DNA of 45,689 nt from Nemertoderma westbladi (GCA_032718475.1 JAUCBJ010001333.1:1-45689), one strand, 5' to 3'. Positions 11,556-43,140 are shown, counted from the first letter of the stretch. Numbers and translations: made by a program. The notes: generated by a model not told the origin, from the sequence alone.

Positions 11556-11632
11556 TTAAATTCGGGTCGATAACGGTTAGACTTACTACTGATTGGCAAT
11601 CTCCTCGTTTATCTCAGCTGTTTCCTTTCCAG

Positions 11633-13606: not shown

Positions 13607-14292
13607 GTAAGTAACGACATAAACGTGTCGTAACTTATAATTTATTATCGGGAAACGAATACCCAATATATTTATTCGTGAGCTCATCGTGTCATGCTGC
13701 TTTGGCTCTCGCCAACTCCACTTAAGATGTTCTTCAATTTTAGTTGGCTATATTTATACGTTCGATAGGTAAATTTTTATAATTTTTAGCCACTTTCATT
13801 TAAGGCCTTAAGAAACTTGTTATAAAAATGGGTTTAAATTTCTCCGTGTCGCACTGACAGTTGTTGCCAACCTACCGTTCACTACCCCCCACCCGGATGT
13901 GCATTACTAACCAATATTGTCAATAAACACCATCTCCCTTAATACTACAATCATTTTTAGCAAGTCGCCCCCCATAATATTTTTCAAATTTCAATCATAT
14001 GCTACGAAATTTGGTATGATGATGGTTAAAGACAAGTTCTCTTACTGCTGACAGAGCGGATTGTTTTATTTTCTGAGCTATTTCGATGCATAGAACTGGT
14101 AGCATTTGATTGAAATTTTAAAAATTAATTAATTAATTAATTTAATAAATAAATTAATTTGATGAATTATTTCACTATAAGGTAGCATTTGTAGTTTAAC
14201 TTTGACGTAAAAACTTTTGAAAATCCGACGTATTTTGATTAAGTTACAGTAATGTAATATGCCTATTCATATTTGTACACATAAAACCCTTA

Positions 14293-14372
14293 GGTACTCT
14301 CGTGGCGTAGTGGTCAGATGGTTAAGGCGTTGGTTACATTACGTAGGTTACGAGTTCGAATCCCAGTCGGGA
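14293..14372 (+). mobile_element. tRNA-derived SINE head or pseudo-tRNA
   Basis: A-box-like tggcgtagtgg and B-box gagttcgaatcc; I could not build a clean cloverleaf. Confidence 0.5.
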
Positions 14373-14429
14373 AATGTATTTTGTATTTTGATTTGTATTT
14401 TGGGGCCATTTATTTTCGTGTGGTGCTAA

Positions 14430-16458
14430 TTGGTAGGCCAATGAGAAGCGTACAACGTAGCGAATAATGAGCCAGGCCAATCATAGGGCATAAATTATCT
14501 TATTGCTCAAATGTGAGGCAGTGGAAAATTCTGTTAGGATTCCATGTCCCAGATTTAGTGTAAGGGCCGGACTGCGTTGAACGATGAGCTGGGCCAATCA
14601 TAGGGCACGAAGCACTTCATTGCTCAATTGTGAAGCTGTGGAAATTTCTGTTTAGTTTCCATGTGCAATTTCTAGTATAAAAGGCCGGTTTGCCTTCGGT
14701 TATCACCTTAGTTACCTAGAACCTTATACCTTGTGTTACACTCTCTTATTCTTGTAAAATTTAGTTTATTCGGTTTCTTGTTGAAACTTCCTTTTGATAA
14801 ATCCTTTGTAAAACTGTAAATATACTGCAATTTCCTGACATGTTTTCTTTTGGTCCGACTTCGGGACAGCCGAACACCAGGGAGATGGCAGCCTAGACCG
14901 TTAGGCCGTAAGCAACGCAGGGAAGGGATGTCCACAACACGCTAGCGCCCACATTTGGATTGACCGCGCACCCCCTTTGCCCTTCGAAATACTCCACTTG
15001 CTATGCAGCGCCCGCTTTGTGAGAAGGTAAGACTTTGTTCGACGCCCTTGCCCGCCGTAAGACCTATAGATCAGGGTAAGCGTGACACCGCACTGGACGC
15101 CGCAAATTTAGGATCAAATAATTATATCCAGACACCCCCCCCCCCCCTTCTTGTCAGTCCTACGAACCCCTGGGTTAACCTGTACTTCCTACAGGTGCGA
15201 ACTATTGCCATTCGTCAGTACGCGAGTACATATTAGGTACGGACAGCATATGTTCCATAATTTAGTGATTCGTAGCACTGACTGTTTGGTACCGGTTCGC
15301 TTTGTAGAACGTACATTAGTACCCCCCCCCCCCCCCCCCCCTGTCTGGAGTTAGCTATTTGATCAGGCAAGGAGTATTTCTGCTACCGGCACACTGCTTG
15401 GCCTAGGGAGGTTTATTAATATCCTACCGCGCCTTGCCACGTACTGATAGGTATTGCTGCTAACTACCGCAGCAACAAAGTTCTAGAATTAAATTAGTAT
15501 ACCAGATCAGCTAACGTACGGTAGCGATTAACCCCTATTCTTATCTTACAACCAGAATCTGGTATTAGTGCCGATCACGGGTGTAGTTACTAACACTGTG
15601 GTTGCCCATTGGGTTGTGGATAGGAAGGAGAGAGCTTTGACGTCATTCGTGAGTATAAAGTTCTACAAACGCGACTAGTTTATTTTAGTAGCTAGCGCAC
15701 GGTATCATTTTAGTCAGAAAATCACTAAAACCTAGTAAAAGGAATTACTCGAAATTGTTTTATTTGTAACACACCCACACACACACGCCCTAAAACATAT
15801 CGCCCTTAAAGTTCTACTAGCTATAGCGTACTATACATTACGTTAGGTGGAAATTATCTGTATTTGTAAAATTAGGATCTGATTTAGTTGCGGCAATAAG
15901 GAGTATTTCATTTTCGTTATTAAACTGTTGTTTGTCTGGACAACGGTATTGTTACATTTAGGCCTGACCTTTTAGACTGATTTCGTACAGGGGGATCAGT
16001 TATTGTTACATTTAGGTACGACCCCTTTTCGACTGATTTAGGACTGTCAGTGTTGTTACGCTAGGTCTGTTAACCCACTAGCTCGTATATAAACCATATA
16101 AATCACACCGCGGCAAGTTACTGTATTTAGGACTGTCAGTGATAGTTAGGATTCGCTGCGCGGGGATTGTTTTCCCGTGAGTTTGGTCTGTTACTGTAAC
16201 TGTACATCTGCCTCACCGGTTAGAGGACAGGTATCCTTCTGTCTAGTACGTAGGCATTAGACCCGCTCACGTACATAGAATAGATACAAGGCTCTGTTCC
16301 TCGCCAGTAGTCGTTTGTGTACTATATCTGTTTGTTTAGATATCCTGGACTGGGATTTGTTGTCAGATACTGTACAAGCCCGTATACATTACTAGAGTCT
16401 CATAGTAAGATACATCGTTACTAGGATCTGGTAAGCGGTATACTACTGGACCCTTACA
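14430..16458. mobile_element. Possible LTR-like or other non-coding repeat with promoter motifs
   Basis: Three ggccaat boxes, a ~118-bp tandem duplication (~14470-14695), TATAAAA at ~14677, higher GC than the flanks, and an end at ...cccttaca. No TSD or coding domains found. Confidence 0.3.
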
Positions 16459-17004
16459 TAATTAATTTAATAAATTAAATAATTAATAAATTAAATTAAC
16501 TAAATAAATAAATTAATTTATTTTTTATATCACTGAAATTCTAGAATTTTGAATAACTACACTATATAATTCCATTGACAGCAGTTGTAGGCCAACTGTA
16601 TGCATATTGTATATTATTATTATTTTCGGCGTTCACAATGTCAATTTATCCAATTCGCCAAAGATATGTTTATATTTCTATTTCTATCAAATTCGTTTTT
16701 TAGTTTATTTTATTTTCTTTGAACTATACTTTTGCTATTTTGCTATACTGAATTTAATAGTTCGAAGAAGAAATAATCACTTTAGTTTCGTATTTTCAAG
16801 GTAAAAACTAAAGTTAGCTACTGAACCGATGGTTATTTCTACCAGGAGAAACAGTTGATGATACTGTAGCAACTACTGTAGCTGTTATATGTGAATTGTA
16901 TGAAATATTTACAATAATAACCGTAATCAGACGTTTCTGGTCAAAGGGTCTAAAGGCCGTGTCAGAGGTTCGAAAGAACCGTAGTTTTAATTTTATTATC
17001 ATAC

Positions 17005-17205
17005 ACCTTTCCTTCAATTGTTAACAACATCGTTTAGAAAATGCCGTCCCTGTAACTTGCTCCTTTCCCTCAATTGTTAACATCGTTTATTGTTTTGGTT
17101 AGAAAATGCCATCTCTGTAACTTGCTCCTTTCCATCAATTGGTAACAAAATCGTTAATTGTTTCGATTTGAAAATTTCGTCTCTATAACTTGCTCCTTTC
17201 CATTA
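17005..17205. repeat. Three degenerate ~60-70-bp tandem copies
   Basis: agaaaatgccgtccctgtaacttgctcctttcc-like motif occurs three times. Confidence 0.7.
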
Positions 17206-17427
17206 TAATTTTTTGGCAATGGTGTTTGTTCTTTAAAACGTCTTTTCGATTCTTTGACCTGTAATCTAATCATTAGATTATTTGCAATAATAATAATAAT
17301 AATCTACTGCTTTTGTCTCAGATACTTTTATCTGGTAAGGCGCTATTAAATAATGACAATAAGCACTATTAATTCTAGAATAATGAAGTTTGCACCGATA
17401 AATACCAACATTACCGCAAGTCGTATA

Positions 17428-18246
17428 TCGACCCCTTAGAACCATAACCAGCCATGTCCACATTTTGTCAAAATTGAGATAGGAATGCTGAACAGAAAGA
17501 AGTACTATCCATGAAAAAGGTCTCAAGTCCATCCATATCTGCATTCAACTAGCACATCTGGCAAGTCGGTAATTTCCATGTCCAAACCATGAATTTCTGA
17601 TAAATGAGCCATGTCCAATGCTTTTACAATAATGAGCCATGTCCAATGCTTTTACAATAATGAGCCATGTCCAATGCTTTTACAATAATGAGCCATGTTC
17701 ATACAATAATGAGCCATGTTCAATGCTTTTACAATAATGAGCCATGTTCATACAATAATGAGTCATGTCCAATGCTTTTACAATAATGAGCCATGTTCAA
17801 TGCTTTTACAATAATGAGCCATGTTCATTGCTTTTACAATAATGAGCCATGTCCAATGCTTTTACAATAATGAGCCATGTTCATTGCTTTTACAATAATG
17901 AGCCATGTTCATTGCTTTTACAATAATGAGCCATGTCCATGGACGTGGCTCATTTTGTCACATATATATTTTACAAATAGTTGGGATTTCAATTATGTAA
18001 GAATGAGCCATGTCCAAAAATTTTAGTAGTATAGTTTTGGAAAATTGGCTGGTTTTCACAATTGGCAACACATATTCCAAACTTTTTGATGTCACACCGT
18101 GTAGTAGCGGTTGGGCCATGAATTTACATTGAAATAACCTTGTTATAATGATGTGTCGATTTATAGCGGCACTTAAAAAACTTTAAACGCGTTTTTCTCG
18201 GAATGACAAAATGTGGACATGGCTTGTTATGGTTCTAAAGAGGTGA
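17428..18246. mobile_element. Non-autonomous TIR DNA transposon with an internal 28-bp minisatellite
   Basis: Left ccccttagaaccataaccagccatgtccacattttgtca matches right tgacaaaatgtggacatggcttgttatggttctaaagagg. About 12 copies of aatgagccatgtccaatgcttttacaat lie at 17603-17940. Confidence 0.85.
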
Positions 18247-18654: not shown

Positions 18655-19974
18655 TCAGTTAAAGGAATACCATTGGGTTACCGCGATACCTGGACCCGCT
18701 ACAACTTTCCTCCAATAGGTTTGTGTGCGCGCTTGTTTCCCTGGCAACGTTATAGTTCCCACTTTGGCCGTCCCAATCAGATGCTGTTCCTCCATCACCT
18801 GGACAACCAATGACAAGTGACCTCGTTCCGCCGTTTGCGATACATTAAAGGTGATGACGTCACTCCATACGGGATTGCCGGTTTCGCTGTGTCGGGCAGT
18901 ACAACGCTGACTGTCTGCGGGTTTGGAGGCGTTTGAACTGTAAAGTTTCGCGATTACGAAGTATTTCTTGGTTCCGAGTGAGTTGTGCGGCAAATTGAGT
19001 CCCTTTCGAATAGTAACTCGGAGTATTCTCGACAGCGTCAGGTACTGAAGGGTGAGTAGCAGCTGGGGAGGGCATCTCACTACCGGGTCCCGGAAGTCCC
19101 CCCGTTGTAAACTTGTCCCATCTTCGTCCCACTCCCTCTTAACGTCTCTGAGACTCAACGACGCTTCCTTAGCGACCGTCTCCATACCGTTGTTACCACG
19201 GGTTACCAGCAAGCGAATCAGCACTCGTCCCCGCTCGACGTCCCTTTCCGTCAACCCCGAGAACTGGAAGCACTGGCGGAATGACGTAATAGCGTTGCTA
19301 GGTAACAACGGGGTAACCGCTTCGGTGGCCTCGAATTCGTCGAAGGTCGGCACGATTTTAAGTTTCACTCTGTACGTGACGTCACACTGCGCGTCGACGT
19401 TTACCAGATGTATTATTGCCAAGGTTACGGTCCACCGTTCGTCTTCCTCGGAGTCAAACACTACGAGACAATCGATGTAAGGCGTACTGCTGTCTTCGGT
19501 TAGACGTCTTTTTATTGGCTGGCCGTCTTTGTCCAATCGGATGTTGTCGTCCGAACCTCTTTTGCTGTCCTTCTCGCGGTTCCCCAACAATCGTTTCATT
19601 CCGACTAGAACAGATGAATTACTTTCAGTTTCGCTGACAATCTTTATCGACTTTGTTTTGTCTTGCGTCGTCGATTGCGTTGCTGTTGTTTTGTTTCTAT
19701 TTTTCGTTCCGGTATCTAGCGAGTTGTCTGCCGATTCGCCGCTATCGCTGTTTCCGTGGTAACGCGACGTGACCCGTTCGGTTCGCGTTGGGCTAGTGGC
19801 CCAGCTGTAGGGGCTCACCCCGGGGGGTAGAATGAAGGATATACTCCGGCGGTCGCGGTCCCGTCTCGATCGACTCCTACTGCGTCGGTAGACCAGCCGG
19901 GCCGCCGCCAACACCACAGCAACCAATACAACAGTCACTATTATGGAGACTACGGTAGCAACCACGGTCACCAT
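18655..19974 (-). CDS. Intronless synaptotagmin-like protein (N-terminal TM, linker, two C2-like domains), 439 aa, nested antisense in the host intron
   Basis: Hydrophobic N-terminus followed by a basic stop-transfer stretch. C2B-like PQLLLTLQYL..RILRVTIRKGLNL, GNPVWSDVITFNV and final TYWRKVVAGPGIAVTQWYSF. ATG sits in an accATGg context. Confidence 0.85.
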   Translation of the reverse strand: MVTVVATVVSIIVTVVLVAVVLAAARLVYRRSRSRSRRDRDRRSISFILPPGVSPYSWATSPTRTERVTSRYHGNSDSGESADNSLDTGTKNRNKTTATQSTTQDKTKSIKIVSETESNSSVLVGMKRLLGNREKDSKRGSDDNIRLDKDGQPIKRRLTEDSSTPYIDCLVVFDSEEDERWTVTLAIIHLVNVDAQCDVTYRVKLKIVPTFDEFEATEAVTPLLPSNAITSFRQCFQFSGLTERDVERGRVLIRLLVTRGNNGMETVAKEASLSLRDVKREWDEDGTSLQRGDFRDPVVRCPPQLLLTLQYLTLSRILRVTIRKGLNLPHNSLGTKKYFVIAKLYSSNASKPADSQRCTARHSETGNPVWSDVITFNVSQTAERGHLSLVVQVMEEQHLIGTAKVGTITLPGKQARTQTYWRKVVAGPGIAVTQWYSFN

Positions 19975-22930: not shown

Positions 22931-24412
22931 GCGGGAAGGTTCAAACTTTAAAGGCAATTTATCTCGGAATGGAATTTTTTCATTCCTGCGAAATTAAAAA
23001 TGTTACTCTTCTGCCAACTTTTAATATTTTTTGATGAAATTTGGACACAGTAATCACAAGCTTGGTTTGGTGTCTTCAAACGTATTGGACAGAATCTCAA
23101 AATTTTGATCCTAACTCATTTTACTGGCTTCGAAATATGGAAAATTCTAATTTTTTGAAAAAAAAAATTAAAATAATTAATTAATTTGGTAATAAAATGT
23201 GAAATAATCAATATCATAAAAATTTTACCAATAATTTTATTCAACACTATATCCTAATTATGTATACGAAATAACTAGTTATATAACTAATGTTTGTTCG
23301 AAGAGTGTTTTTTAGTGTTTGCCAGGGGTTACTCGCTTTACTGTATATATTGTTATCGTAATAAATTGATGTTTTTATCCTTTGTTCCAATCAAATTTAC
23401 TTTCAACTACCCCTGGTTGTTGCTAGGGAAATGGTACTTTGTTGCGATGAAAACTTTTTCCCTGTTTAAATTGTTATACTAATCAAGTTATTATCAACGG
23501 GATTGTTTCTTTATGGCGAGTTTAATAATAGATGAGACCAAATTCACCCGGTTGATATTAAAATGTCACCAATGTAGCTAGGGAACTAGTCAATTATTTT
23601 ACTACACAGGGTCAGTTTAATCTACCTACTGTATAGTGACATTTTTCTGCTTTTGTCCTGTAATTAACGACTTATCCGTGTTTTAGTCTTAAGCGACGAT
23701 ACGAAGATGAATTCGGTATAAACTCTTACTACATACAGCACCCTCTACCGCTGTAGAGATAAACATTAAAGTATGATTTGTGAATTCTCTAATTGACGAT
23801 AGATGGCGAGCTATTATCGCCTAGCAACATAATATACAATTTATAATACATATGTATTTCAAACTGTAGGCTTATGTCAATAACCAAACCTAGGCAATGC
23901 ATACTGTAATGTATTAATTAAGATTATAAAATTTTGAAAGAATCAGTTTTTGCACGTTTATTTACCTTTAGGAATAAATTAATAAACGATATGTGCGGAA
24001 TATATAAACGTTTTTATTTTCATTTAATCTGTTAATAATACGTTATTTATTGGGTCTCAACAGTACGTAGTTACCGTTACTGTAAATAGGCCTATACTAT
24101 AAAATGTGATACTGCATCCCATAGCCTAGTCAAAATAGGCCCAGTCCAGTCTTAGATAAATTGCAACACACTGTACTAGTAGTTTTTCGTAGTTTTTCTA
24201 GTTTTAACGGTAGTTGTTATATTTATTAGTTATTTAGGTTATATTTAACACCCTATCCCAAATCACCCCATAATTCGGATTGTAAACACACCATGGCAAC
24301 ATAATAGTCTGACAACGATAATCTATCTTTGACCTAGCCCCCATAGACCCCCCCCCCCCCCACCCCCCCCCTCCCCCCCCTTGACTCACTAGAGAATACG
24401 TTTTTAAACACG

Positions 24413-24425
24413 GTTACCGGGCAAC
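24413..24425. promoter_or_regulatory. RFX X-box upstream of HYDIN
   Basis: GTTACCGGGCAAC fits GTNRCC-N(0-3)-RGYAAC. Weaker matches lie at 22417, 23419, 23816 and 24289. Confidence 0.5.
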
Positions 24426-25278: not shown

Positions 25279-25702
25279 CCTAAACTATAGATACGACCCG
25301 CCAAGCTGCTGCAAATCCCTTAAATTTAGTTATTTCTCTTAGATAGAACCCCTGAAACAATAGGTCTAGCTCGTCGAAAGTACTTGGCCCTAAATAAAAT
25401 AATGTCCTCTTTCAGATGATACAAATAAAAATGTAATAATAGCTCCAGTAGTTTTTGAGATATTAAGAATTTCTGGCACCCATATTTTTTCCTCACGATA
25501 TTTTTACTCGCGATATTGTTACACAATTACCACGTATTTCTGTACTGTCGGCATCTTGGTAGGTTATATATTGTCATTAATCAACCTAATTATATTATAA
25601 TCAAATAATATTTATATTCATTTACCGTTATTCTTGATTTATTCATAAATTATATACTTAATGATGGAGTGAAAAACTTGATTTTAAGCACAAAACGTGA
25701 CA

Positions 25703-31700: not shown

Positions 31701-34700
31701 AAGATGCTGAGAAGGAAATTCCTGCTGAGGTTGGATATGCAACTCCCTTGTCTGGTGACAAATTACAAAGTCGTGACACAAACACCAAAGAAAATGGTGT
31801 AAGGGCACCTGAGGTTTCTATACCTGGGACTGGCAGAGAAAGTGCTATTGACAAAGTCACAGGCATTGGACAGTTGGAAATGACCCCTGTTTCGGCTTCC
31901 ATTGCCAAATACTTGGGAATTGATTTGTCACCAGAAGGTAAGGCAGCTGAGCTCAGACGAGGCGTAGCCATTATTGTTAATGGAGGCCCACTATCGGGGA
32001 AAACACAAATGTCTGTTGAGCTCGGGAAGCGCTACTCAGCTAATGTTCTTACTATAGATGATATTATTTTAGAAGCCATTATATCTAAATATGAAACTCC
32101 AAGTGGCAGCCAGGCACTTGAAATATGTGCTGCTGCTGCAACACAATATAAGGGAGAACAAGATGCAGAGGCTCTTGCTGATGTAATAAATGACACTGCT
32201 GATATGCATCTTCCAGCAACCAAACAACTTAAAGGTGCAGCTGAGGTCCATTATGAACAGCCATCAAAGCAGCATAAGATGGTTACTGAAATTCAGAATG
32301 TTGAGAAACATAAGGATACATCCCGTATTCAAACACCTGTTGAAGTTCCTCAACTACCACCTTTGCCATTTGGTAAAATAATTGAATTTGATGACCCCAA
32401 AGTCGCTAAAGATGGGCTCCGAACTACCCACCTTCCTGAACATGTAATTGTCCAGATTTTGGCAGAAAGATTTCAGGCAGCTGATTGTTTTAATGGCATT
32501 ATTATTGATGGCCTTAAATCATGGTTTTGTCCTACAATTTCAACGTCGGCTATGTATATTTTAAAAGCATTTAACAATCGAAAATATTTGTATATAGTGT
32601 CTTTGAAAAGGGATTTTGAATCTTTACAGGCTTATGAAAATAACAAAAAACGTGAAGCAGAATTAGCAGATATTGAATATGAAAGACTAACTCGTCAAGC
32701 TATACATGATCTATCTGAAGATTGTTATGATAATCTTACAGATGACCAAAAGTCCATTATAGATAACAAACAACTTGCAATAAACAAAGAAAGATTACGC
32801 CTAGAGCATGAGAAGCTAGAGAGGGAGAAAAAACAAAGAGAATTAGAAGCACTGATTAAAGCTCAAAAACTGGAAGAGGAAAGACTGGCAAAGAAACGAG
32901 GCAAAAAGGTTGCTTTATCTAGTAAGCCTCGTGGTACTGGTGAAGAAGCTATTGCTGAGCAAAGGAAAGGAAAGCATGATGATGATCATGAGAACATTAA
33001 GAGGAAAAAGGGCAACAAAACATTTACAACTGATGTCGTTGAAGAAGTTGAAGAACCGCAGCTTACAGAATCTGAAATACACTTACATCAACTCTATAAG
33101 GAGTTTAATACAGGTTTTAAAGAAATAATGAAAGTTTCTGATCGCTGGAATAGGGTAGAGTTGTCTGTTAACCGACCATTGACTCCAGTCGAGTACAGAC
33201 AGCCGGATGATACTAATAAATTTTCAAAGAAAAAAGGAAAGGTAAAGGGTAAGGCTGTTGAACATGATATTGACAAAGGCAAGGACAGTAAAGAACTTAA
33301 GGATAGTTTGCCAATAGATAATCCAACAGAGACTCCTACAGACGGTGAAAGACCTGATGATGGTGATGGTTTTGTAAACATTGGGATTCCACATATAGTA
33401 GTTAACATGAATAATTCATGTGCAGATATAATTTCTAAATTCTTTGAAACCAATCTGCTGCCTGATTCTGATGAAGTTTTGGAGGGCTTGGGATTAGGTC
33501 CCGATGGCCCACCAGTACCCCCTCCAGCAACTTTCAGTATGGTCCCATTTCCTGTGAAACGTACAATGTCAGACATTGCTGAAAGTAGCAAGTTTACATT
33601 TGTTGCTGCACACAGTAATGATTTAAACATATATCCAGGAGCTAAACAGCCTCCTACTCCAGAACCAGAATTTGAAGAAAATCGTTCAGTAACAGCTACA
33701 CCTCCAAAGTCAAAAGGAAAACGTCAGGAAAAGCGTGCTCACTCTGTGACAAAGGATAAAAAACCACGGCGAAGTTCTTCCATTGTAACCAGTGCTTCTA
33801 AGAAAGAACCCGAGATTGATGAGCCGCCTGTGGAAATACATCAACGTGATATACATGATGGGAAGCCGAAGCCACTTCAATACTACAGGTGGATAGTTAA
33901 TGCTGATTCAGAAATTTCTCTTAAATTGCATTTCTCATCCATTGAAAGAGGCACATTTGATCAAACATATAATTTTGAATTAGTTGGAACAAGACGTAAA
34001 TATCAGTTGCATTCCAGGGGTATTTGTTCATTTCCAAATATCAGCACAGAACCAAGAGTGCTCTACCCTGCAAGGAAAAGAACACAAAAGGAAGGCGATA
34101 TAGTTAAAAAGAAATTTATTGGAGACACAAATACATTTGAGTTTGGGCCCTTAATAATCGGGAAGAGTCGAGATAAGTATATTGATGGTGTATTTCCAGA
34201 AAATGTGGCTAATTTGACAATATTTAACAACTCTCCTCTGCTTTCAGAGATTACATTTTGTTTCAAGAATGACACTAACTCAACAACTTTTATGTTACAT
34301 CCTGTAAGTATGTTAATTCCAAGTAATGAAAGAACGGAATTGAAAGTTTGGGCATATCCAAAAACGGTTGGTAGATTCACAGATGAAATTATAGGCTGCA
34401 TTCGTGATAACCCAGAACCAGTAGTCATTTCGATTTCTTGTGATGGTGTTCAGCCACGATTGGAATTGCCATCCAAGATTATAAACTTTGAAAAAGTTCT
34501 GATCCACAGACGAGAAACCAAGACTCTTATATTTCGGAATGTCACATTATTGCCAGTTGGTTGGAAATTAATTGGAGTGGATCAGATGCGTGATGAGTTT
34601 TCTTTAGATCATGAGCAGGGAGTGGTCGAACCTCTTTCAGATTTTACTCTGAATGCACATTATAGGTCTACCAAACCAGCCATTATAAAACGAAACTTGA

Positions 34701-37700
34701 AATTAGAGGTGTTTGATACTGAGAGAATTTTGGGTACAATTCAGACCGAAACGTTGCAGATAATTGGTGAGGCATATGATGTTTCTGTAGACATACAATT
34801 TAATAAGACACCAGATGGTTGTTTAGATTTTGGTACTATAAAAGTTGGAGATGAGGCGAAGAACACTCTTACTATAAAAAACAAGGGAAAATATGAAGTT
34901 ATGTATCATTTACATGTTATACCTGGTGGGAAGCAATGGCCCGATCTTCGCAAGGTTTTCAATGTGTCTCCTGCGAAAGCAACATTAAATCCAGCAGACA
35001 GGCCATTAACAATTACTATTAGTTTTCATTCAATAAATGAGCTTCTCTTTTCCAATGATCCCATTCTTCAATGCACTATAATAGAACCCAGCATAAATGG
35101 TGGTGTAGAAATAGCACGAATACCAATAAAAATTAGCGCCAAATCAGTCTTTAGTAAATATCAAATTAGTCCTCTAAGTGATATTAACTTTGGACCTGTT
35201 CAATTACATACAAAGTTACAAAAAACACTTACTATTGAGAACAAGGGGTGTTTCGAATTTAAATATTTGATTACCAGAGTTCAGAAAGAGGATATTCATA
35301 AGGATGACAAAAAACGAAACTTAAAGTCTGATACCACTAAAACCAAAAGCCAATCCAAATCAGCAACTGGCAAAACAAAACGATCTGAAACTGGAAGTCG
35401 TGCGGAGGGTCCAGGTCCGGTTCAAACTCGTCTTATTTTAGATACGTTTACCATTTACCCAGCTCATGGAACAGTGGTACCTGGAAATACCCAGCAGATA
35501 CAGATTGAATTCTCAGCTGATCAGTCTGGTGAATGTTTGGAGAACCTGATGATTGATATCCTAGATCGTGATCCCGCTGATAATGCGAAAGGCATTCCCT
35601 ACAAACTATTAGCTGAATCCTTTGTACCTGGAATCAATGTTTCTGATTATGGTTTGATATATGACGAGCATATGCTATGCACAAATTTCAGTGCTTGGAT
35701 AGCCAGCCAGTCTACTGCGCTGCAATCAAAGACTAATGATTTGAGTGATGCAGAAAATGTCTCCACTGTTTTTCTTCTAGAGGAAAATCGTTTCATGTTT
35801 ACAAATATTATAGTTGGATATTCTGCTACTGCTCGATTTCGCATATCAAACCCGTATAAAGTTCCTGTTGATGTGGCATTTGTTATAAAGAATCAAAATA
35901 TCCCAGGTATCAGAGAAGGGGCGAAGTCGTCTCGACAACAACAGGTCGCATCACAAGATGCTTTTGATTTGCAGCCTTCAAGAGCTAATATATCAGCACA
36001 TAGCCATATATATGTAACTGTGACCTTTTCACCTTCAATTATAATGAACTATAATGCTACTTTTGAAACAAGTATTGAAGGTATTTCCACCTCTTTGCAA
36101 AAATCACGAAATCTTACTTTCAACATATCTGGGGAAGGGAGCATGCCTAGAGTTAAGGTTGTTAACCCAACAACAAGGACTTCACAAAGTGCACCTCTCT
36201 TGAGGTACTCAAAACTTGCTATTGGTCGGAATGAATCGCATATTGTAACATTGGAAAATATTGGACAGTTACCTTCTAAAATATCCTTGGATATATTTGA
36301 TGAGGATTCAGCTTTTCGAATAATTTTGCCTGATACAATTCGCTCTTTAGAAACAAGCGTTAGTCAACATTGTGCCGTTTTCCAGTTATCAAGTGGAACT
36401 CAGATAACATTTAATGTCATTTTTGAACCCAAGAATGTTGGAAAATATCATGCTAAAATAAAGGTATCTGTTGAAGATAATTTCTTTGAGGATGTGGAGA
36501 TACTGTGTTTGGGAGATGCATTTGATGATGTTCTCCTTATTGAGGAAATACATCTTCCCATAAATTTTGCATTGCCACAAGAAAATGAAGATGTTTTAAA
36601 GATTACTTCAGACATAGAGGCACTCCCATCCAATTTTTTAAATTTTGGCATGGTGTATTTCAATTCAGTAATGCAAGCCACTTTTACCATTTCCAATACC
36701 TCTGATAAAAACTTTAAATTTTCTGCACCTTCATTATCATATTTGACTTTTTCTCCAAGTATTGGACATTTACATTCACATTGCAGGAAGGATATAACTG
36801 TAACTGTCAACTACAACAAACCCATAAACCTGAGATATGAAGCTATCCCCTTTGATTTTATTGAATTAGAATATGACCAGCCCTTGGACGAAGTTGAAGA
36901 CTGGGACGACAGAAAGTGTGTTGTGAAATGGATAGATATTGATGTGCCCGCTGAGCCTTCTGTAGCCAGTAAAACATCATCAAGGAAAAAAGTTGCAATT
37001 GAGAAACAAAAAGTGGATGTTTCGAATACTGCACTTGCTGTTAAGAGACCCACTAAAAGGAAGGTGTTGGAGATTGATCAAGAACCAAAACACAACACTG
37101 CTGAAGATACCCGAAGAGATTTGGATTTATCAATTTCCTTGCTTATGGATTACTGTAAATATAGACTGAGGGCTGAGTCCAGCATTCAGTTTAAAGATAC
37201 TCTCATGTTTATGACTCGAGTTTACGAGTTTGATATGGAGAATATTGGGTCAATGGTTATTGATTATACTTGGACAGTTGTATTAGACAAGTTAAAATAT
37301 AAACGTTGCGAAAGCAGTGCCGAGTCTATTAATACATTAACGCCGCGGACAGTGCAATTTAATCATCCCCCAATAACCCCAAGGCTGGAACCAATGTCAT
37401 CTAAGATTCAAACTCTGCCAACATCTCGAGCGCAATCGTCCTGTTCATCAGTAAAGGACCTTTCACTATGTCAAGATGAATACCCGATATCAGAAGAACA
37501 CATATCTGAAATACAATCTCCTTTTACCATTGAGCCCGAATATGGTTTTATTGGGCCTGGAAAGAAACAACGATTTAAGTTAATGTTCTCACCAGTTGAT
37601 GTTACTGAATATTCCGCACAGCTATTGTGTTCCATACCAAATCTTGAAGTTGGTGATCAGCAACCAATGATATCATTAAAAGCACTTTCCCTGTTACCGT

Positions 37701-40700
37701 ATTGCCATTTTCAATTAGAAGAATCGGATTATTTGGATGGGCGTCGTGATCCTGAGTTACGTGGCCCTAATGAGCAACCTTTGGATTGTAACACTCGAGT
37801 TATAGAGTTCAAATGTGTTGGCGTTGGTCAAACAGTTGTACGAACTTTTAACATTAGAAATCCTTGTAAATATCCATTAAAATTTGTTTGGAATCACACT
37901 GACGGACAGAAGTCTCAAGTTCATTTTCGCTGTCTCACTGCGAATGGTACAATAGGACCTGGAAAAGAACAAGCTGTTAGCTTGGAATTTCAGTCGTCCA
38001 TTATTGGAATTGTGGAATCCTTTTGGATGTTCAGAATAATTGCTCATGGAATTGATGTACCGTTTCTTTTAGTTGGTGACACTATTGAACCTTTAATCGC
38101 ATTTGATCGTTTGTATTTAAATTTCAAGAATCTGCTTGTGGGCAGAAAATTCTCAGAAACAATATACATCACAAACAGTGAAGACACGCCTTTTAATTTC
38201 TCATTTGATCAAGATACCTTGTATTCTGCGGCCCATGATGTCCAAATCGAGGCACTACCTCTGAAGGGAACAGTTTTACCGAGATCCAAGTTCGCCGTAG
38301 AACTTTATTTGACGACGATCAGGGATGAAGAAGTGATATTTCATGTCAAAGCAAAAGTTCAACACAAACCATCGCCACTGAGGATCACTGTGAAAGCCCA
38401 GGGTTATTCACTAACTTCACAATTGCTTATAGTGGATGGAGATAATACCATTGAATTAGGCCACAATTCCATTGAGGAACTCAATCTTGGTAAAGTGGAA
38501 GTGAAGGACAATGTTTTTAGGTATTTTCAGATCGTCAACACTTGTCCTTATACACTCACATACAATTGGTCCATAGATAATGCTCCTAAAGGGATCACTA
38601 TGACACCAATGAGTGGATTCGTTACCGCAGACAAACATACTCAGTGTGAATTAAATTTTATTCCAACTAAAGTTTGCGAACTCAATGGCTCCAATTTGAA
38701 ACTTGCTATAGTTAACGGGCCTGTTTATCATATAGCATTAATTGGCCAATCTGTGGCACCTTTGCTGAAATTGTCTTTCTCTAAGTATGATTTTGGTTTT
38801 ACATTTGTTTATCAAGCGGGCATGAAGGTGAAGTCTAAGGAATTGGAGATAACAAACAGCGACGATAAGGACATAAGTATTGAATGTCTCTCCACTGAGA
38901 GTGATTATTTGAAGTTTAAATTCGAACCAATATTACTTTCCCCTGGCAAAAGTGTAAAAATGTTGTTAAAGTTCTACCCTCGGCAACCAATACGGTATTG
39001 TGAAACATTGTCATTTTTGGTTAATGGATTGACTGCAATTGATGTCCAAGTGTCTGGCAGTGGCTGTAAGTTCGCGGTAGAAATAGCTAATGGCAAACAG
39101 CGGTTGCGCAATATAGGAACTCTTAGAACAGGTCAAATATCTACACGTTCCCTGTCAATAGTCAATAGGTCGCCAACACCTGCTAGTTTTAATTTAATTT
39201 GCACCCCAGTTACCCAAGGTCTGTTAGCACCCGGGGTGTTAAACATTGCACCAAGTAGGGTTAATATTCCTGCGAAGGGAGGGGTGGCAGAGGTGCAGAT
39301 ACGATTCGCACCTAAATCCAGGATCGTTCAATTTGTTGAAGAAGTAATGCTCGAGATGGAGGATAATTACACAACGCCTCTGTTCGCCGTGACTGGGGCC
39401 TGTCAAGGAATCGAAGTCTCTTTGGATACATCGAGTATAGCGTTTGGTCCAGTGATGTTGCGCTCTCAATGTTCTAGAAAACTATTGATCTCAAATTCTG
39501 GAGATATGGGTACCGCTTTCCACTGGAACCCCGCCAATTTCGCTCCAGATTTCTCGATGTCGCCCAGCAACGGGTATCTTTCTCCAGGAATGAGTGTAAC
39601 ATTGCGGGTGATGTTCCACCCAGTTCGTGAGAACGCTGACATTCGATATGAGAACTTATACTGCGCGATAGAGGGCGCTAAACCTTTACATCTCATGTTA
39701 ACAGGAATGTGTATTGGACATCCACCTGTGCGAGAAGTGTTATCCTTCACTACAAACGTTCGCGATCCTATTATACGTAAAGTTAACATAACCAATACGA
39801 GTGTCCACGGCATAAAACCGTGGCTTCTCCAGCCTGTCATAGAAGGCGAGTATTTCTCTGGTGACGATACAATATCTATAGCAACAGGAGAAACTGAAAC
39901 TTACGAGATCACCTACTTACCATTGGAGATGACAAAGCAAGACAAACCGCATTCTGGTTCGTTGTTCGTGCCACTGCCCACGGGAACCGGGTTGCTATAC
40001 CAACTGGTCGGATTATCTGGCGAACCGAAACCAATAGCAACTGTAGTTAGGGACATCCCTTGCAAGACCGCTTACGTAGAGGTACTTCAGGTGCCTAACT
40101 GGTTGACCAATCGGCAACGTTTTAAGGTTGTTCGTGAACTCATTAAGCCTGAACGGTTGGAGCAGACTGTTAAACTTGAAGGCCTGGAGCACATACAGGT
40201 GCCAGCTCTCGGAGAAGCCAAATACAACTTGTCCTTCTTCTCATATCGTGAAACTTCACTTCATTTCAAGTTATTTTTTGTCAATGAGAGTAATGGGGAG
40301 TATTGTTTCTATGTTATCACCCTGCATGCTACACCACCTGGTGTGCTTGAAGCCTTTGAAATTCAGTGTCCAGTGAGAAAAACTAAAACACAAACTATAT
40401 CGTTGGAGAACCCAACTGCCTCAACAGTAACTTTTAATTGTCAGACACCCCTTCAGGAAGTTATGCTCCCGTCTTCATTTCAAATCCCGGCCATGACGTC
40501 CGTTCCATTAACCGTCGAATTCCAACCACTTCGAGTGGTGGAACAGGTCGGGAAGTTGTACCTGAACTGCAACGAACTCGGACTCTATACCTACCAGCTG
40601 AGTCTACAAGGTACCGCTCCAGCCAATGAGAAAGCGACGCACTTCCGGTGCGGACTTGGTTCCTCGCAATCTCAACAGGTTCACTTCCACAACTTATTTA

Positions 40701-41236
40701 AGAGCAAAACTGAATTTTCCTGTAAAGTCTTGCAGCAAAATCCGAACGATAAACCGGAATTTCTTGTTGATAAAACGGTGACGGGAGCTGGAAGTAGCGG
40801 GGCTAGTGGAACCGAGATCTCGTTGGATGTTCTATACGAACCAACCATGAAAGGAAACACTCGGGCCCATCTATTGGTCCAATCACCTCAGGCGGGGGAT
40901 TTTAATTTCGCTTTATTCGGGATTTGTACCGAATCTCCACCGCAAGGCCCTTTCCTAGTAAAACTCGGACATACGACCGCGGTCCCGGTAAAGAACATAT
41001 TCCACTCGACGCAGCACTTTACCTTTACAACTCAACCCGATTGCTTCGCCGTGAAGGGAAGCAGCGCCGAAGGTATCAGAGCCAAAAAAATTCATTACGT
41101 GAACATTTCATTCGATTCCACCGATAGAACTGCGACGAAGCTCGGGACTCTCACGGCTACCTGCGCCAAGTCCACCGACATTGGGGGGGACGTAGTAACC
41201 TGGGTCTACTACCTCAAAGGCGTCGTCGATAAATAA
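25703..41236 (+). CDS. HYDIN: Hydin (axonemal central-pair protein), ~5177 aa, encoded by a single uninterrupted ORF
   Basis: LFQPFPSEVTFQ..LRNMDHVPRLVKV start of the conserved region, many ASH/Ig-like repeats (FG..+..+.N), an adenylate-kinase-like P-loop GVAIIVNGGPLSGKT at ~31961-32005 followed by coiled coil, and the C-terminus WVYYLKG. The first ATG is at 25703 (the track starts at GTG 25697). Confidence 0.96.
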   Translation: MINVRVNSPPRGPLTERSQIPKHPAIQDGVRAKSGNPAGTRMKRNKAPRNPRLVNPAKLEGLSEVKLKPSVYMQRQLMTTEQLLNSTVEVQVTKIIQLLDIGQKSFQKLCSLPLESCLFQPFPSEVTFQHCQPCQPYQVGLQLRNMDHVPRLVKVNCEDSSYFKIVRPPHAGDKVAPGMAVTYKIVFIGDESKDYYYEVEVFTERELFIVPVRVIGPRAILDFPDDVDMLMCPVKHTTTRTLLIRNLGNREARFNVESHLPFQVEPASATLDVGHCMQVNVAFHPLNTGEHTTYIIVHYDTGEDVYMKVFASASDANIRIDKSTIHMPKTYIGLRSERFFSISNRSDIIVNFQWKRYETEAEEDAEINQVVSSLHKALSRDNLDSENEEDKLFTERQRIKQLTPSKDDFAFLDNEYSITPINGEIWPGQSAECSIVFQPEVVVESNLAAWLDVSGVEKRLGVKIYGEGVGPWCELSYDELDVGYVFMNSSSSYEIILKNRGQIDAYYRILSDNSFCQFSPEENPVNAGGYQAIQLMVCSPVIGVFKEEFFFEINDSPDKLRLSVTGTIAGPTFNFDVSEINFGNVAFGFPQTKVFELTNTSYIPMNFELRVPTDGSDVVAVEAESDEAVWNYNIDPFTKPKEFTIIPDSGTLAPMDSCPVTITMLSNTAKKYVNDTLVVRIVDMAQDVALLPIKCRCYVPELYITNPIIEYGKCFMHSPTAGFLTITNPTEFPAKYNLIEQSHMESSMILYESSAPSGIIAANSSFDLPITIRAQLKDHLQVGAYLSTFGSPDRPMQVILRAFGLGPVVFVASNELDYGTIPVLTEAIKRVTLENESPIAATYTCFLMQSTNSVFSVYPAQGILHPKSTLQINVVCFINDDIKCKDQLKIVFVDGLTHVIPLYAKGIGTTIEITPKLVPSYDLGPQFSTLPIKNELLIKNSGRRAQCLIFKTKGYSLSKTSQVTMDPFDIKKSESGVSLSPTFAINPCRIELQPGESITAYLEGYCKELKCVKETITCDTIFEGKGPKKTIMNIDVLAEFVEPCVQLSHQFINFRIDCCLGEVPQLQTMSLAITNITPLPLHMTLDICHPFYFKVDKDLVNIVNVSADPANFASVCVAFDSDYVQDRHCRIAKGLLTIKYRGNPTIHTIDVTGEVNFPNIEFSTKSIDFGSILNNTESTAVLRMTNNSPVDVKFAWTFLDPVKISYFQKPQNLMDTDNMDTIDHGVSSGDNFVDIDTVDNCDVEPELQVEENLAEEIRVYGGNDGGLNLGIPIEEIDDNLSQNDNIGVNFEGDNNTGEIANDFLANDGNLLSTSEERESTAMPHDSDEIIDSDPQITNVLNVDEVFDILPMFGRLAPSEAMTSVVTFYGHPEIQAESTAICSVEGGPDYNITLCGTASSMGFEIDHFEHDFGKVRFDEQCSAEFLIFNKGKVPLPFNVLTQNFAESGITNILPSVGIIDVEANEVVIRITLIPGIPEYFRVTIKLQVAHFEPCELIMFGIGTFPNIKLNIPRQYDSDNATLCELKNSISKRFEGDKVVKNSIKGALDNLLMPGIKESCVVEDPPYSLHDEVENLLVKQYAENPEHTSLSEVVFPDYIIEFGYVILGDVKSQLVTLQNDGYLPVSFSTDKSALESSGFTANISRVKGLPGFPSCGTHEFIVKFDPRCANLQEGYVEVSMLFNLTNGPTIRLIMKATVTSPCLSIAQPYSDFGSVLCGQCKIVTMQLCNNESVACEWEVIYPPGPRIKIDKHLPMHLKPKQKPFKLNMKTFELLPSKGVIFPGAKMNVQIKFMPTEEKVYDVKLPIRVDCSAQIVGIRLSGTGIEPKLIFSSTNLTFGPVLPFSEGQYLSISVKNPTAHPIEFYSLEFDKQYLEEEKILRMMTGYDSYNNIILPPRVPGESLPSELLEFFMLFKQKQAELSKVQEWKDRSASALADSSVHDDRTLSATSSSKSSKEIMARGSGRKISPAPPTVSYPQTEQQPTTIERIEASELEYVPAVLEEDAEKEIPAEVGYATPLSGDKLQSRDTNTKENGVRAPEVSIPGTGRESAIDKVTGIGQLEMTPVSASIAKYLGIDLSPEGKAAELRRGVAIIVNGGPLSGKTQMSVELGKRYSANVLTIDDIILEAIISKYETPSGSQALEICAAAATQYKGEQDAEALADVINDTADMHLPATKQLKGAAEVHYEQPSKQHKMVTEIQNVEKHKDTSRIQTPVEVPQLPPLPFGKIIEFDDPKVAKDGLRTTHLPEHVIVQILAERFQAADCFNGIIIDGLKSWFCPTISTSAMYILKAFNNRKYLYIVSLKRDFESLQAYENNKKREAELADIEYERLTRQAIHDLSEDCYDNLTDDQKSIIDNKQLAINKERLRLEHEKLEREKKQRELEALIKAQKLEEERLAKKRGKKVALSSKPRGTGEEAIAEQRKGKHDDDHENIKRKKGNKTFTTDVVEEVEEPQLTESEIHLHQLYKEFNTGFKEIMKVSDRWNRVELSVNRPLTPVEYRQPDDTNKFSKKKGKVKGKAVEHDIDKGKDSKELKDSLPIDNPTETPTDGERPDDGDGFVNIGIPHIVVNMNNSCADIISKFFETNLLPDSDEVLEGLGLGPDGPPVPPPATFSMVPFPVKRTMSDIAESSKFTFVAAHSNDLNIYPGAKQPPTPEPEFEENRSVTATPPKSKGKRQEKRAHSVTKDKKPRRSSSIVTSASKKEPEIDEPPVEIHQRDIHDGKPKPLQYYRWIVNADSEISLKLHFSSIERGTFDQTYNFELVGTRRKYQLHSRGICSFPNISTEPRVLYPARKRTQKEGDIVKKKFIGDTNTFEFGPLIIGKSRDKYIDGVFPENVANLTIFNNSPLLSEITFCFKNDTNSTTFMLHPVSMLIPSNERTELKVWAYPKTVGRFTDEIIGCIRDNPEPVVISISCDGVQPRLELPSKIINFEKVLIHRRETKTLIFRNVTLLPVGWKLIGVDQMRDEFSLDHEQGVVEPLSDFTLNAHYRSTKPAIIKRNLKLEVFDTERILGTIQTETLQIIGEAYDVSVDIQFNKTPDGCLDFGTIKVGDEAKNTLTIKNKGKYEVMYHLHVIPGGKQWPDLRKVFNVSPAKATLNPADRPLTITISFHSINELLFSNDPILQCTIIEPSINGGVEIARIPIKISAKSVFSKYQISPLSDINFGPVQLHTKLQKTLTIENKGCFEFKYLITRVQKEDIHKDDKKRNLKSDTTKTKSQSKSATGKTKRSETGSRAEGPGPVQTRLILDTFTIYPAHGTVVPGNTQQIQIEFSADQSGECLENLMIDILDRDPADNAKGIPYKLLAESFVPGINVSDYGLIYDEHMLCTNFSAWIASQSTALQSKTNDLSDAENVSTVFLLEENRFMFTNIIVGYSATARFRISNPYKVPVDVAFVIKNQNIPGIREGAKSSRQQQVASQDAFDLQPSRANISAHSHIYVTVTFSPSIIMNYNATFETSIEGISTSLQKSRNLTFNISGEGSMPRVKVVNPTTRTSQSAPLLRYSKLAIGRNESHIVTLENIGQLPSKISLDIFDEDSAFRIILPDTIRSLETSVSQHCAVFQLSSGTQITFNVIFEPKNVGKYHAKIKVSVEDNFFEDVEILCLGDAFDDVLLIEEIHLPINFALPQENEDVLKITSDIEALPSNFLNFGMVYFNSVMQATFTISNTSDKNFKFSAPSLSYLTFSPSIGHLHSHCRKDITVTVNYNKPINLRYEAIPFDFIELEYDQPLDEVEDWDDRKCVVKWIDIDVPAEPSVASKTSSRKKVAIEKQKVDVSNTALAVKRPTKRKVLEIDQEPKHNTAEDTRRDLDLSISLLMDYCKYRLRAESSIQFKDTLMFMTRVYEFDMENIGSMVIDYTWTVVLDKLKYKRCESSAESINTLTPRTVQFNHPPITPRLEPMSSKIQTLPTSRAQSSCSSVKDLSLCQDEYPISEEHISEIQSPFTIEPEYGFIGPGKKQRFKLMFSPVDVTEYSAQLLCSIPNLEVGDQQPMISLKALSLLPYCHFQLEESDYLDGRRDPELRGPNEQPLDCNTRVIEFKCVGVGQTVVRTFNIRNPCKYPLKFVWNHTDGQKSQVHFRCLTANGTIGPGKEQAVSLEFQSSIIGIVESFWMFRIIAHGIDVPFLLVGDTIEPLIAFDRLYLNFKNLLVGRKFSETIYITNSEDTPFNFSFDQDTLYSAAHDVQIEALPLKGTVLPRSKFAVELYLTTIRDEEVIFHVKAKVQHKPSPLRITVKAQGYSLTSQLLIVDGDNTIELGHNSIEELNLGKVEVKDNVFRYFQIVNTCPYTLTYNWSIDNAPKGITMTPMSGFVTADKHTQCELNFIPTKVCELNGSNLKLAIVNGPVYHIALIGQSVAPLLKLSFSKYDFGFTFVYQAGMKVKSKELEITNSDDKDISIECLSTESDYLKFKFEPILLSPGKSVKMLLKFYPRQPIRYCETLSFLVNGLTAIDVQVSGSGCKFAVEIANGKQRLRNIGTLRTGQISTRSLSIVNRSPTPASFNLICTPVTQGLLAPGVLNIAPSRVNIPAKGGVAEVQIRFAPKSRIVQFVEEVMLEMEDNYTTPLFAVTGACQGIEVSLDTSSIAFGPVMLRSQCSRKLLISNSGDMGTAFHWNPANFAPDFSMSPSNGYLSPGMSVTLRVMFHPVRENADIRYENLYCAIEGAKPLHLMLTGMCIGHPPVREVLSFTTNVRDPIIRKVNITNTSVHGIKPWLLQPVIEGEYFSGDDTISIATGETETYEITYLPLEMTKQDKPHSGSLFVPLPTGTGLLYQLVGLSGEPKPIATVVRDIPCKTAYVEVLQVPNWLTNRQRFKVVRELIKPERLEQTVKLEGLEHIQVPALGEAKYNLSFFSYRETSLHFKLFFVNESNGEYCFYVITLHATPPGVLEAFEIQCPVRKTKTQTISLENPTASTVTFNCQTPLQEVMLPSSFQIPAMTSVPLTVEFQPLRVVEQVGKLYLNCNELGLYTYQLSLQGTAPANEKATHFRCGLGSSQSQQVHFHNLFKSKTEFSCKVLQQNPNDKPEFLVDKTVTGAGSSGASGTEISLDVLYEPTMKGNTRAHLLVQSPQAGDFNFALFGICTESPPQGPFLVKLGHTTAVPVKNIFHSTQHFTFTTQPDCFAVKGSSAEGIRAKKIHYVNISFDSTDRTATKLGTLTATCAKSTDIGGDVVTWVYYLKGVVDK

Positions 41237-41491
41237 CTTAGTTTGTTCTTTTATTTTGGAAATATGAGGCATATAGTGTGGGAAATGCGGATAAAACAAA
41301 TAGTCGCGAAGTTGTTGCTCGGGTGTTGGGGCCTTCAACATTATGCTGCAACAAAAACATCCAGCCTAAATTAACAAACAATCTACCAAATTTAATCATT
41401 CCGTCTAGTCTTAGGTTAATAATGATTATTGCAACCATTGAACGTGATAATTAATTAAATAATATATATACTGAAATGTACCCATTTACTA

Positions 41492-41497
41492 AATAAA
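41492..41497 (+). terminator. Candidate HYDIN polyadenylation signal
   Basis: AATAAA ~255 nt after the stop, followed by T-rich sequence. The AT-rich context makes a chance match possible. Confidence 0.35.
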
Positions 41498-42199
41498 TTA
41501 TATTTATTTTACTTTCGGTTTTATACTGTGCTGTTAGTCCGTTTTCCACATTTAGTTTCCTGTAAATATTTTATTAATTTGTATCATACCGGTTTGGTTT
41601 CTTATTAAATAATTGTTTGATTATATTACTACGTTATTATTCTGACATTCCCTCATTATAATTTTTTAATTTGTATAAGTTTGAAGTTCTTGCACGTATC
41701 AAAAACATGACATGAAAAAAATAAGAAAAAATTATTAAGATTGTGCAGATAATAACCAAATGTGCATTGGCTTCCACGTGGGATCGAACTGGTGACTTTT
41801 AGGTTGGGATTCTAGGGTCTCACCATTCCCATGGCAGCGAACCTTTATTATGTTTGATATGATAATACCAACAGATGCACAGTAGATAATTAAATAGTCA
41901 TTTGCCACTAAATATATCTCAACTATAATAGTCATTTAACCAAGGATAAATTAATTTTCCGCTATAGAGATATTGAATGCTGAGGTCAAACAAGCATCAA
42001 ACGCGATATCATAGAGAGTGTAAGACTAATTCAGCGATAATTATTGTTAATATCCACCCAGCTATAGGGCTGAAGTTACTGCATAGCTTGACACGTTCGT
42101 GGAGCCTTCGCGCAGCACAAGGCTGCATATGCACGAAGTTAGGTTTAATTTCATCAATGATTGACCGCTACTAACTAGTGCTATTTAAATTAAATGTGA

Positions 42200-42710
42200 C
42201 AATTTTAGTTTTACAATACTCGCATCATTCATTAGCCTCGTTGCGCTCACCCTGTTTTGTCCCAAAATATTTTTCTAAAACGATGACTGACGACCTTTAT
42301 AACTATGCATAACTCAATTTATAACTGATGATTTATGGCAGATGGATACTCGTATCCTCTGAAAAACTCATTGCGTTCGTCCTGTACAAGATGGTCACCA
42401 AATATTTCTTGCAACATTCCATTATCAGTACTAAACAAAATGTTACATACTAAACCACGGGGTTTACGAGTAGTGTAAACAATACTCGTTATATAGGAGC
42501 ATAGTCAACACAGACTCGTCTTCCTTACAACCATCGTTGCACTCGTCCTGTACATCTGGTCGCCAAATAACTAGCATAAAACATTCTACTACCACCGGTA
42601 CGGATCAAAATGACATGTCGTCCAATATGCAAAATCAGGTTGTTTACGAGTATAGTTAACACAATACAAATCTTATCCTTCATTATCCTCGTTGCGCTCG
42701 TCTTAAAGGC
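42200..42710. repeat. Old degenerate ~165-bp tandem repeat, ~3 copies
   Basis: ctcgttgcgctc, cgtcctgtaca..tggtc.ccaaata and tttacgagta motifs recur at similar spacing. Confidence 0.5.
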
Positions 42711-43140
42711 CCCACGCAAATTTTATTTGGAAAATTTGTAAAATTTTGCCAAAAAACATGTATACCATGTTTGGTTTAATTTTATCCAAATTTTCAAATT
42801 TCCAATTTCCAATTCAACGACAGACAAGACAACTCGTTAATGGTACCCCATTGCTAAGGCTTCGCTCACTTCGTGGCTCGCCCCACAGTTCAAATTATAG
42901 ATTGTTTCGAAAGTTACACAACCTCCACTTCGCACTCTTTTTAGTGGTCTAACTAAGCATGTAGTCGTGCTCATTCAATATACAATGTCCTTCTATCATC
43001 ATACGAAAATTCATAGCATTTGTTTTTTTTTATGAGAAAAATAGAAGAAGGGGGGGGGGGGGGGGGGGGTTCGGAAAGATAATAATTGTGTATAAGATAT
43101 ATGAATTCCACATTTATATAAATTATATTTTACATCGCAG

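Follow-up and report, generated by a model that had tools for sequence, protein, structure and literature searches.

A CEP126-like gene of Nemertoderma westbladi with conserved blocks on both sides of a complete, intron-free HYDIN coding exon, likely joined across a predicted 29.5-kb intron

Does a complete HYDIN gene lie inside an intron of another gene that is read in the same direction, or do the two only share a neighborhood? This question is raised by a stretch of 45,689 nucleotides (nt) from Nemertoderma westbladi (GCA_032718475.1, JAUCBJ010001333.1:1-45689; the window, in the following, means this whole stretch), which is animal-type nuclear DNA, its introns rich in AT and its exons richer in GC, with fragments of reverse transcriptase and tandem arrays of great length. 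A sequence-only reading had proposed that an intron of a CEP126-like gene hosts two complete genes, among them HYDIN on the same strand as its host. As a whole the locus is best explained, with a probability that we put at about 0.72, by a CEP126-like gene whose conserved C-terminal blocks flank a complete HYDIN coding exon on the same strand and whose halves are likely spliced across a predicted 29.5-kb intron, which also houses an antisense synaptotagmin-like gene. The host structure is based on homology and predicted splice sites only, and the splice chain that we infer leads from exon B through C, C', D and E to F. The features from which this explanation is built are the following.

2512-2589, plus strand: weak candidate for a host exon A, open, with acceptor ...tttcag and donor ACG/gtattt, ending in phase 2 and fitting the acceptor of exon B
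3863-5854, plus strand: predicted host exon B, a 664-codon frame rich in Pro, Ser and Thr with in-frame 36-nt repeats, donor TAG/GTTAGT, phase 2
6794-7328, plus strand: predicted host exon C, with the CEP126 block TPTDEEI..LW..V at 7233-7304 and the strong donor CAG/GTAGGT (6/7), phase 0
11633-11774, plus strand: predicted host exon C', phase 0 to 1, acceptor ...tttcctttccag, donor AATG/GTAAGG, carrying the CEP126 'IDG..L' block
13482-13606, plus strand: predicted host exon D, phase 1 to 0, acceptor ...cattttcag (polypyrimidine 0.76), donor CCG/gtaagt (6/7)
13607-43140, plus strand: predicted host intron of 29,534 nt between exons D and E, containing both nested genes
25703-41236, plus strand: HYDIN coding sequence of 5177 codons and a stop, no intron, within an open frame at 25688-41236 (5182 codons from stop to stop; ATG at 25703)
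43141-43237, plus strand: predicted host exon E, 97 nt, phase 0 to 1, polypyrimidine 0.59, donor 4/7
45318-45500, plus strand: predicted host exon F, 183 nt, phase 1 to 1, with the CEP126 C-terminal block, donor 6/7

The identity of the host was analyzed with a CEP126 profile of 120 proteins (of 416 passing an E-value of 0.001), all of them vertebrate or unnamed, which was run without filters over 2196 six-frame fragments of the window. Only two of these fragments were significant, exon F with an E-value of 2.1e-16 (profile positions 1020-1089) and exon C with 1.2e-6 (positions 880-903), while the next-best fragment reached no more than 5.3. The two blocks are located on one strand and in profile order, one on each side of HYDIN, as had been claimed before. 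Both conserved blocks are intact and keep the most conserved residues of the profile, with exon C holding the motif 'TPTDEEI..LW.GV' and exon F the C-terminal motif 'AEN.A ... LSLEEQ..L.S...LN.RL'. An exhaustive protein search with exon F returned two matches at an E-value of 0.001 or below, of which the real relative was a CEP126 protein of tarpon (P0002, E-value 6e-6); the second (P0003), a repetitive and unrelated-looking protein, was set aside. When P0002 was in turn compared with the window by tblastn, it aligned to 45317-45499 with an E-value of 1.3e-12 and 54% identity over 69 amino acids (aa) as well as to 7230-7283 with an E-value of 0.029, and a collinear alignment at 3861-3914 (E-value 14) was not significant. 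With host-family blocks on both flanks, on the same strand and in order, two exons of a single host gene likely enclose HYDIN in its entirety.

Support for a connection between the halves came from the joined peptide. Under the predicted splicing, exons C, C', D, E and F together matched the CEP126 profile as a single domain of 101 bits that spans positions 880-1089, with 214 residues for 210 positions, and this comparison of the spliced product with CEP126, which had been suggested together with the initial proposal, came out in its favor. The joined score fell to 87.5 bits when exon D was left out, to 80.2 bits when exon E was left out and to 82.1 bits when both were missing. All predicted host exons are open, with no stop in C, C', D, E and F combined, and the host has at least six introns within the window. 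The phases described earlier, with exon D ending in phase 0, exon E leading from phase 0 to 1 and exon F starting in phase 1, were found again in the sequence. Frame closure over D, E and F is on its own no more than chance, because, with the HYDIN frame left aside, the stretch from D to F contains 437 other open AG..GT segments leading from phase 0 to 1, and the splice context of ten of these is at least as good as that of exon E.

Closer examination of the chain revealed that the six-exon version initially put forward stands as a structure supported by homology, but that exon C' was lacking or mis-joined in it and that the phases of C and D clash. Exon C' is needed because the strong donor of exon C leaves phase 0 and the strong acceptor of exon D requires phase 1. 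It was found when alternatives for exon D were ranked and segments at about 11.66-11.9 kb reached 101 bits, compared with 83.5 bits; with C' included, the joined score rises from 83.5 to 101.3 bits in a single domain. The direct joins of C to D, using the weak donors at 7332 or 7305 or the acceptor at 13502, were therefore dropped (83.5 bits versus 101 bits with C' and strong sites). The best model of exon C' uses the first of 29 AATG/GTAAGG donors. Since the frame remains open through the entire 48-nt array in which these donors lie (11492-13210), a longer exon is conceivable, and C' may also exist in a longer, repeat-bearing version. Upstream, the donor of exon B is the only phase-2 donor scoring at least 4/7, and it joins exon C in phase 2. 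For the exons that flank HYDIN, the real order of D and E in the join made before C' was included exceeded all of 20 shuffles by a small margin (83.5-83.7 versus 73.9-82.2 bits). Exon E received modest support from the profile, ranking second of 437 before C' was added and sixth of 437 thereafter. Two variants that share its donor at 43237 ranked first and second, so that E or same-donor variants occupied ranks 1-3 before and ranks 1, 2 and 6 after the addition of C'.

Several results weigh against this reading of the host. The Pfam family K1377 (PF15352) matched exon F at profile positions 916-982 of 983 with an E-value of 1.8e-6, and the score of 26.9 bits leaves this exon alone 0.1 bit below the gathering cut-off of 27; exons B, C, D and E gave no match to the same family even at E-values up to 10. 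The N-terminal coiled-coil block of CEP126 (profile positions 1-190) was not matched by any fragment of the window, exon B matched neither the CEP126 profile nor a Pfam family, and the join of exons A and B aligned to profile positions 194-212 with a non-significant E-value of about 150. Taken alone, exon C' scored only 0.8 bits (E-value 12, not significant). Exon D ranked 2416th of 2552 alternatives before C' was included and, with C' in place, reached a modest 18th of 329 frame-compatible alternatives, while the splice signals of exon E are modest and, as given above, equaled or surpassed by those of ten other segments. No invertebrate or close relative turned up in the protein searches with exon F, among the at least 120 CEP126 matches listed or in a metagenome scan with HYDIN, and the search of exon F against longer proteins produced no match at an E-value up to 0.01. 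In favor of the reading, no plus-strand frame between the HYDIN stop and exon F is able to encode the other approximately 900 CEP126 positions; the 5' part of the host must therefore precede HYDIN, and the gene probably starts upstream of base 1. At the opposite end, exon F finishes in phase 1, and the gene therefore continues past the end of the window.

The same exons bear on the possibility that the host is split or decaying. According to this explanation, insertions would have broken the CEP126-like gene, the part up to exon D would end at an intronic poly(A) site, exons E and F would be a relic or a separate short transcript, and HYDIN would lie between pieces of a gene rather than inside an intron. 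Read-through from exon D meets a stop after eight codons (frame 13442-13633), which makes a truncated product possible, and in known cases the expression of nested genes accompanies premature polyadenylation of the host (PMC11694760). Every predicted exon is open, however, and both blocks are intact with their most conserved residues. The phases close over D, E and F, nothing able to start a protein was present before exon E, and exon F ends on a good donor (6/7), so that further exons follow it. We consider a broken host unlikely and retain the reading in which its two halves are likely spliced together across HYDIN.

The nested HYDIN itself was identified by its domains and by comparison with a solved chain. 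Among the Pfam families, Hydin_ADK (PF17213) was covered completely (profile positions 1-196 of 196) at 103.6 bits with a cut-off of 27, and many ASH/MSP/PapD-like Ig families exceeded their cut-offs in both halves of the protein. Comparison with the solved 5154-aa chain 9ijj_4G gave 3026.9 bits, and the best of four matched stretches aligned query residues 2051-3858 with chain residues 2036-3877. Judged by this alignment, HYDIN is full length and collinear with the solved chain. A metagenome scan with the N-terminal 1000 aa of HYDIN led to 30 pattern matches, none of which was confirmed. GC content at third codon positions (GC3) was 0.316 for HYDIN (25703-41233), compared with host values of 0.50 in exon B, 0.62 in exon C and 0.58 in exon F and with 0.59 in the antisense gene with a C2 domain, which is a sharp contrast between neighbors.

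The HYDIN coding sequence in this window is without introns. Vertebrate HYDIN has more than 80 exons. Because HYDIN lacks coding introns while the host contains at least six in the window, an origin by reverse transcription is suggested, and HYDIN likely goes back to an mRNA that was reverse-transcribed, by insertion of a retrogene into the host intron or by intron loss mediated by complementary DNA (cDNA). Two results speak against this origin. The flanks of HYDIN contained no target-site duplication above chance, the longest match of 11 nt being compared with a shuffle mean of 11.1 and a maximum of 15, and no poly(A) remnant was found beyond two A runs of 6-7 nt located 480 nt past the HYDIN stop. 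Old retrogene copies lose both poly(A) and target-site marks. A more far-reaching version would see in HYDIN a functional 15.5-kb retrogene, among the largest processed copies known, that landed in sense orientation within the intron of a cilium-related gene, acquired or brought an RFX X-box promoter and may have replaced an intron-rich parental HYDIN; in that case a single chromatin domain would hold two cilia genes, and the full-length message of the host would depend on the suppression of the nested poly(A) site. We regard this version as speculative and rather doubtful.

How HYDIN and its host might be transcribed was judged from the following elements.

24413-24425: palindromic RFX X-box matching GTNRCC-N-RGYAAC on both strands, predicted HYDIN promoter element, 1278 nt upstream of the HYDIN ATG
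41454-41609, plus strand: candidate HYDIN poly(A) signals, predicted from sequence motifs (ATTAAA at 41454, AATAAA at 41492, ATTAAA at 41604)

Scanned with the X-box consensus GTNRCC(0-3N)RGYAAC (PMC5752003), the window contained five matches with a 1-nt spacer at four loci, with 0.21 expected and none of 100 shuffles reaching five, and six loci with any spacer (4276, 5304, 19192, 19294, 24413 and 39559), with 0.35 expected. As a caveat, the other matches fall within coding sequence, be it of HYDIN, the C2-domain gene or the host, so that the X-box at 24413 is the only promoter candidate. Further RGYAAC half-sites are present at 23.8-24.3 kb. The palindromic X-box points to a promoter of HYDIN that would be independent of the host. 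In the mechanism that we propose, HYDIN would be transcribed from this RFX-type promoter, probably via a short exon in the 5' untranslated region (5'-UTR) and an acceptor at 25688, and the AATAAA/ATTAAA signals near 41.5 kb are the predicted end of its transcript. To be made in full, the host transcript would need to cross a promoter in sense orientation, the 15.5 kb of HYDIN coding DNA and then a poly(A) site, and use of the HYDIN poly(A) site would shorten the host message. In such layouts the known outcome is competition by premature polyadenylation of the host (PMC11694760). Two observations were made on the sequence around these elements: a one-mismatch X-box palindrome is found within exon D at approximately 13577-13592, and homopolymer runs include a C-rich run just upstream of the X-box (24343-24382) and about 20 G before exon E (43054-43073).

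An opposite arrangement, in which HYDIN has no promoter of its own and is made from the host pre-mRNA, either with a 5' exon of the host joined to the acceptor at 25687-25688 or by trans-splicing of a spliced leader at this position, appears very unlikely to us. Host and HYDIN do share a strand, and an AG acceptor, the only one just ahead of the HYDIN ATG, is located 15 nt before it. An in-frame fusion of host exon D to HYDIN was examined and rejected, because exon D joined to this acceptor meets a stop after three codons; no in-frame fusion arises by that route, and HYDIN would be placed behind a long upstream frame. The perfect palindromic X-box together with the half-sites, 1.3-1.9 kb upstream of the HYDIN ATG, argues for separate transcription as well.

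The second gene in the predicted intron is encoded on the opposite strand.

18655-19974, minus strand: synaptotagmin-13/20-like single-exon frame of 439 aa, with its ATG in the context gaaaccATGG

Its translation starts with a hydrophobic N-terminal stretch and contains one C2 domain at residues 320-417 (33.8 bits, with a Pfam cut-off of 22), while a second C2 domain was not detected by Pfam in this frame. The closest Atlas neighbors were synaptotagmin 13/20 clusters with values of 0.94-0.95. With the 5177-codon HYDIN frame and this antisense C2 frame both present, the statement that the predicted intron carries two complete genes, HYDIN on the strand of the host, was borne out. Among the 31 frames that were scanned in total, the 23 other frames of at least 60 aa within the intron (13607-43140) matched no Pfam family.

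Outside this intron, the most conspicuous elements are tandem arrays at the ends of host exons.

5820-6681: array at the end of exon B, about 48 nt in 6 copies that are 74-83% alike
7300-10526: array at the end of exon C, 44 nt in 73.3 copies that are 99% alike, each unit made up of the donor, the 29 nt at the end of exon C that precede it and 15 nt of intron
11731-13203: array at the end of exon C', 48 nt in 30.7 copies that are 96% alike, in frame with C' and containing 29 identical donors

Three consecutive host donors, those of exons B, C and C', are each located in the first unit of a separate array, and the unit reaches across the exon end and the splice site, with the last 29-36 nt of the exon followed by the donor and 12-15 nt of intron. 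For exon B this means that its 3' end and donor fall in the first unit of the approximately 48-nt array, while exons A, D, E and F have no array of that sort. The idea that the three units form one repeat family was discarded, since their local alignment scores were matched by 95, 171 and 28 of 500 shuffles. The pattern resembles a known route of intron gain, in which an exon segment containing AGGT is duplicated in tandem (PMC3265369, PMC4974935), in that the units span the exon end and the 5' splice site, but the arrays here have 6 to 73 units, and the simple form of the model does not fit because the next exon does not begin inside the last unit.

These repeats are also relevant to an assembly artefact, in which the segment with HYDIN and the synaptotagmin-like gene would have been misplaced into the CEP126-like gene, separating two of its parts. 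Long, near-identical tandem arrays abound in the region, as do homopolymer runs, and these are hard to assemble; the GC3 of HYDIN (0.316) differs from the 0.50-0.62 of the host exons. Yet the arrays are situated in other introns (7.3-13.2 kb) rather than at the borders of the HYDIN segment, HYDIN itself is flanked by unique AT-rich DNA, and no N or break was visible in the stretches that were read. A misassembly is in our estimation the least probable of the explanations considered, and a genuine nest of HYDIN within the CEP126-like gene continues to account best for the locus.

A variety of further repeats and element fragments was observed along the window. Exon B contains two kinds of in-frame coding repeats, 36 nt in 6.4 copies that are 96% alike, each unit encoding 12 aa, and 21/63-nt repeats rich in Pro, Thr and Ala (4488-4716 and 4890-5159). 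A hairpin-like element of about 480 nt (5981-6477), with arms of up to 88 nt that are 94-97% complementary, is located inside the array of the intron between B and C and looks like a foldback insertion or one of the miniature inverted-repeat transposable element (MITE) type. Retroelement fragments with DUF6451 and RVT_1 matches were found at 10568-11459 (10568-11462, minus strand), with a related tail at 1-546 (plus strand). The intron between E and F contains a GC-rich, reverse-transcriptase-like stretch with broken frames on the minus strand (43860-45126) that had no Pfam match. Downstream of HYDIN, the sequence at 41760-41840 resembles a transfer RNA (tRNA) by eye, with the motif GGGATCGAAC, and may be a relic of a short interspersed nuclear element (SINE); the tRNA scan with ARAGORN and the Rfam scan called nothing there, and the resemblance was not confirmed.

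How does this locus compare with systems that are already known? CEP126 (KIAA1377) is found at the centrosome, the pericentriolar satellites and the base of the cilium (PMC4293463). The gene described here shares with it the two most conserved C-terminal blocks, in order and with the right spacing, but its N-terminal and central parts are not recognizable in the window, upstream of which the gene probably starts, and it is far more diverged than the vertebrate or unnamed relatives among the 120 of 416 matches listed. The nested HYDIN resembles that of the central-pair apparatus (chains 9ijj_4G, 7sqc_F0 and 7n6g_1J; Chlamydomonas hydin, PMC2063982) in its full length, its Hydin_ADK domain and its many ASH/Ig domains. 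The cilia link common to host and HYDIN may be coincidental.

Approximately one sixth of human genes host another gene (PMC11694760), and the gene-in-intron layout is common; the unusual part is the very large size of the nested gene. Like the host/nested pairs of animals described in the same source, the present case consists of a complete gene in the intron of another protein-coding gene, with an expected interplay via premature polyadenylation of the host. It departs from them in the very large size of the nested gene, whose coding exon measures 15.5 kb, in its sense orientation and in the presence of a second, antisense nested gene, and the case is known from sequence alone. In imprinted retrogene/host pairs, hosts are known to be polyadenylated prematurely in association with expression of the nested gene (Wood 2008 and Cowley 2012, as cited in PMC11694760). 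The likeness to these pairs is an intron-free nested gene in a host intron, so that the host has either to end before it or to be transcribed through it, whereas the marks of a retrogene were not found at HYDIN. In the titles and abstracts of the literature searched, no intron-free animal HYDIN, HYDIN retrogene or nest of CEP126 and HYDIN was reported.

Current understanding would stay unchanged unless RNA data and a comparison with relatives bear the nest out. A HYDIN of 5177 codons without coding introns beside an interrupted host is a striking absence of introns and bears on the length limit of reverse-transcribed copies, while the host blocks may widen recognizable CEP126 beyond the vertebrates, which were the only named relatives among the matches listed. 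If transcription proceeds as predicted, one would expect activity of both genes in ciliated cells, and the locus would provide a test case for the way in which RNA polymerase and the cleavage apparatus deal with a very long sense gene that lies in an intron and carries a promoter and a poly(A) site of its own.

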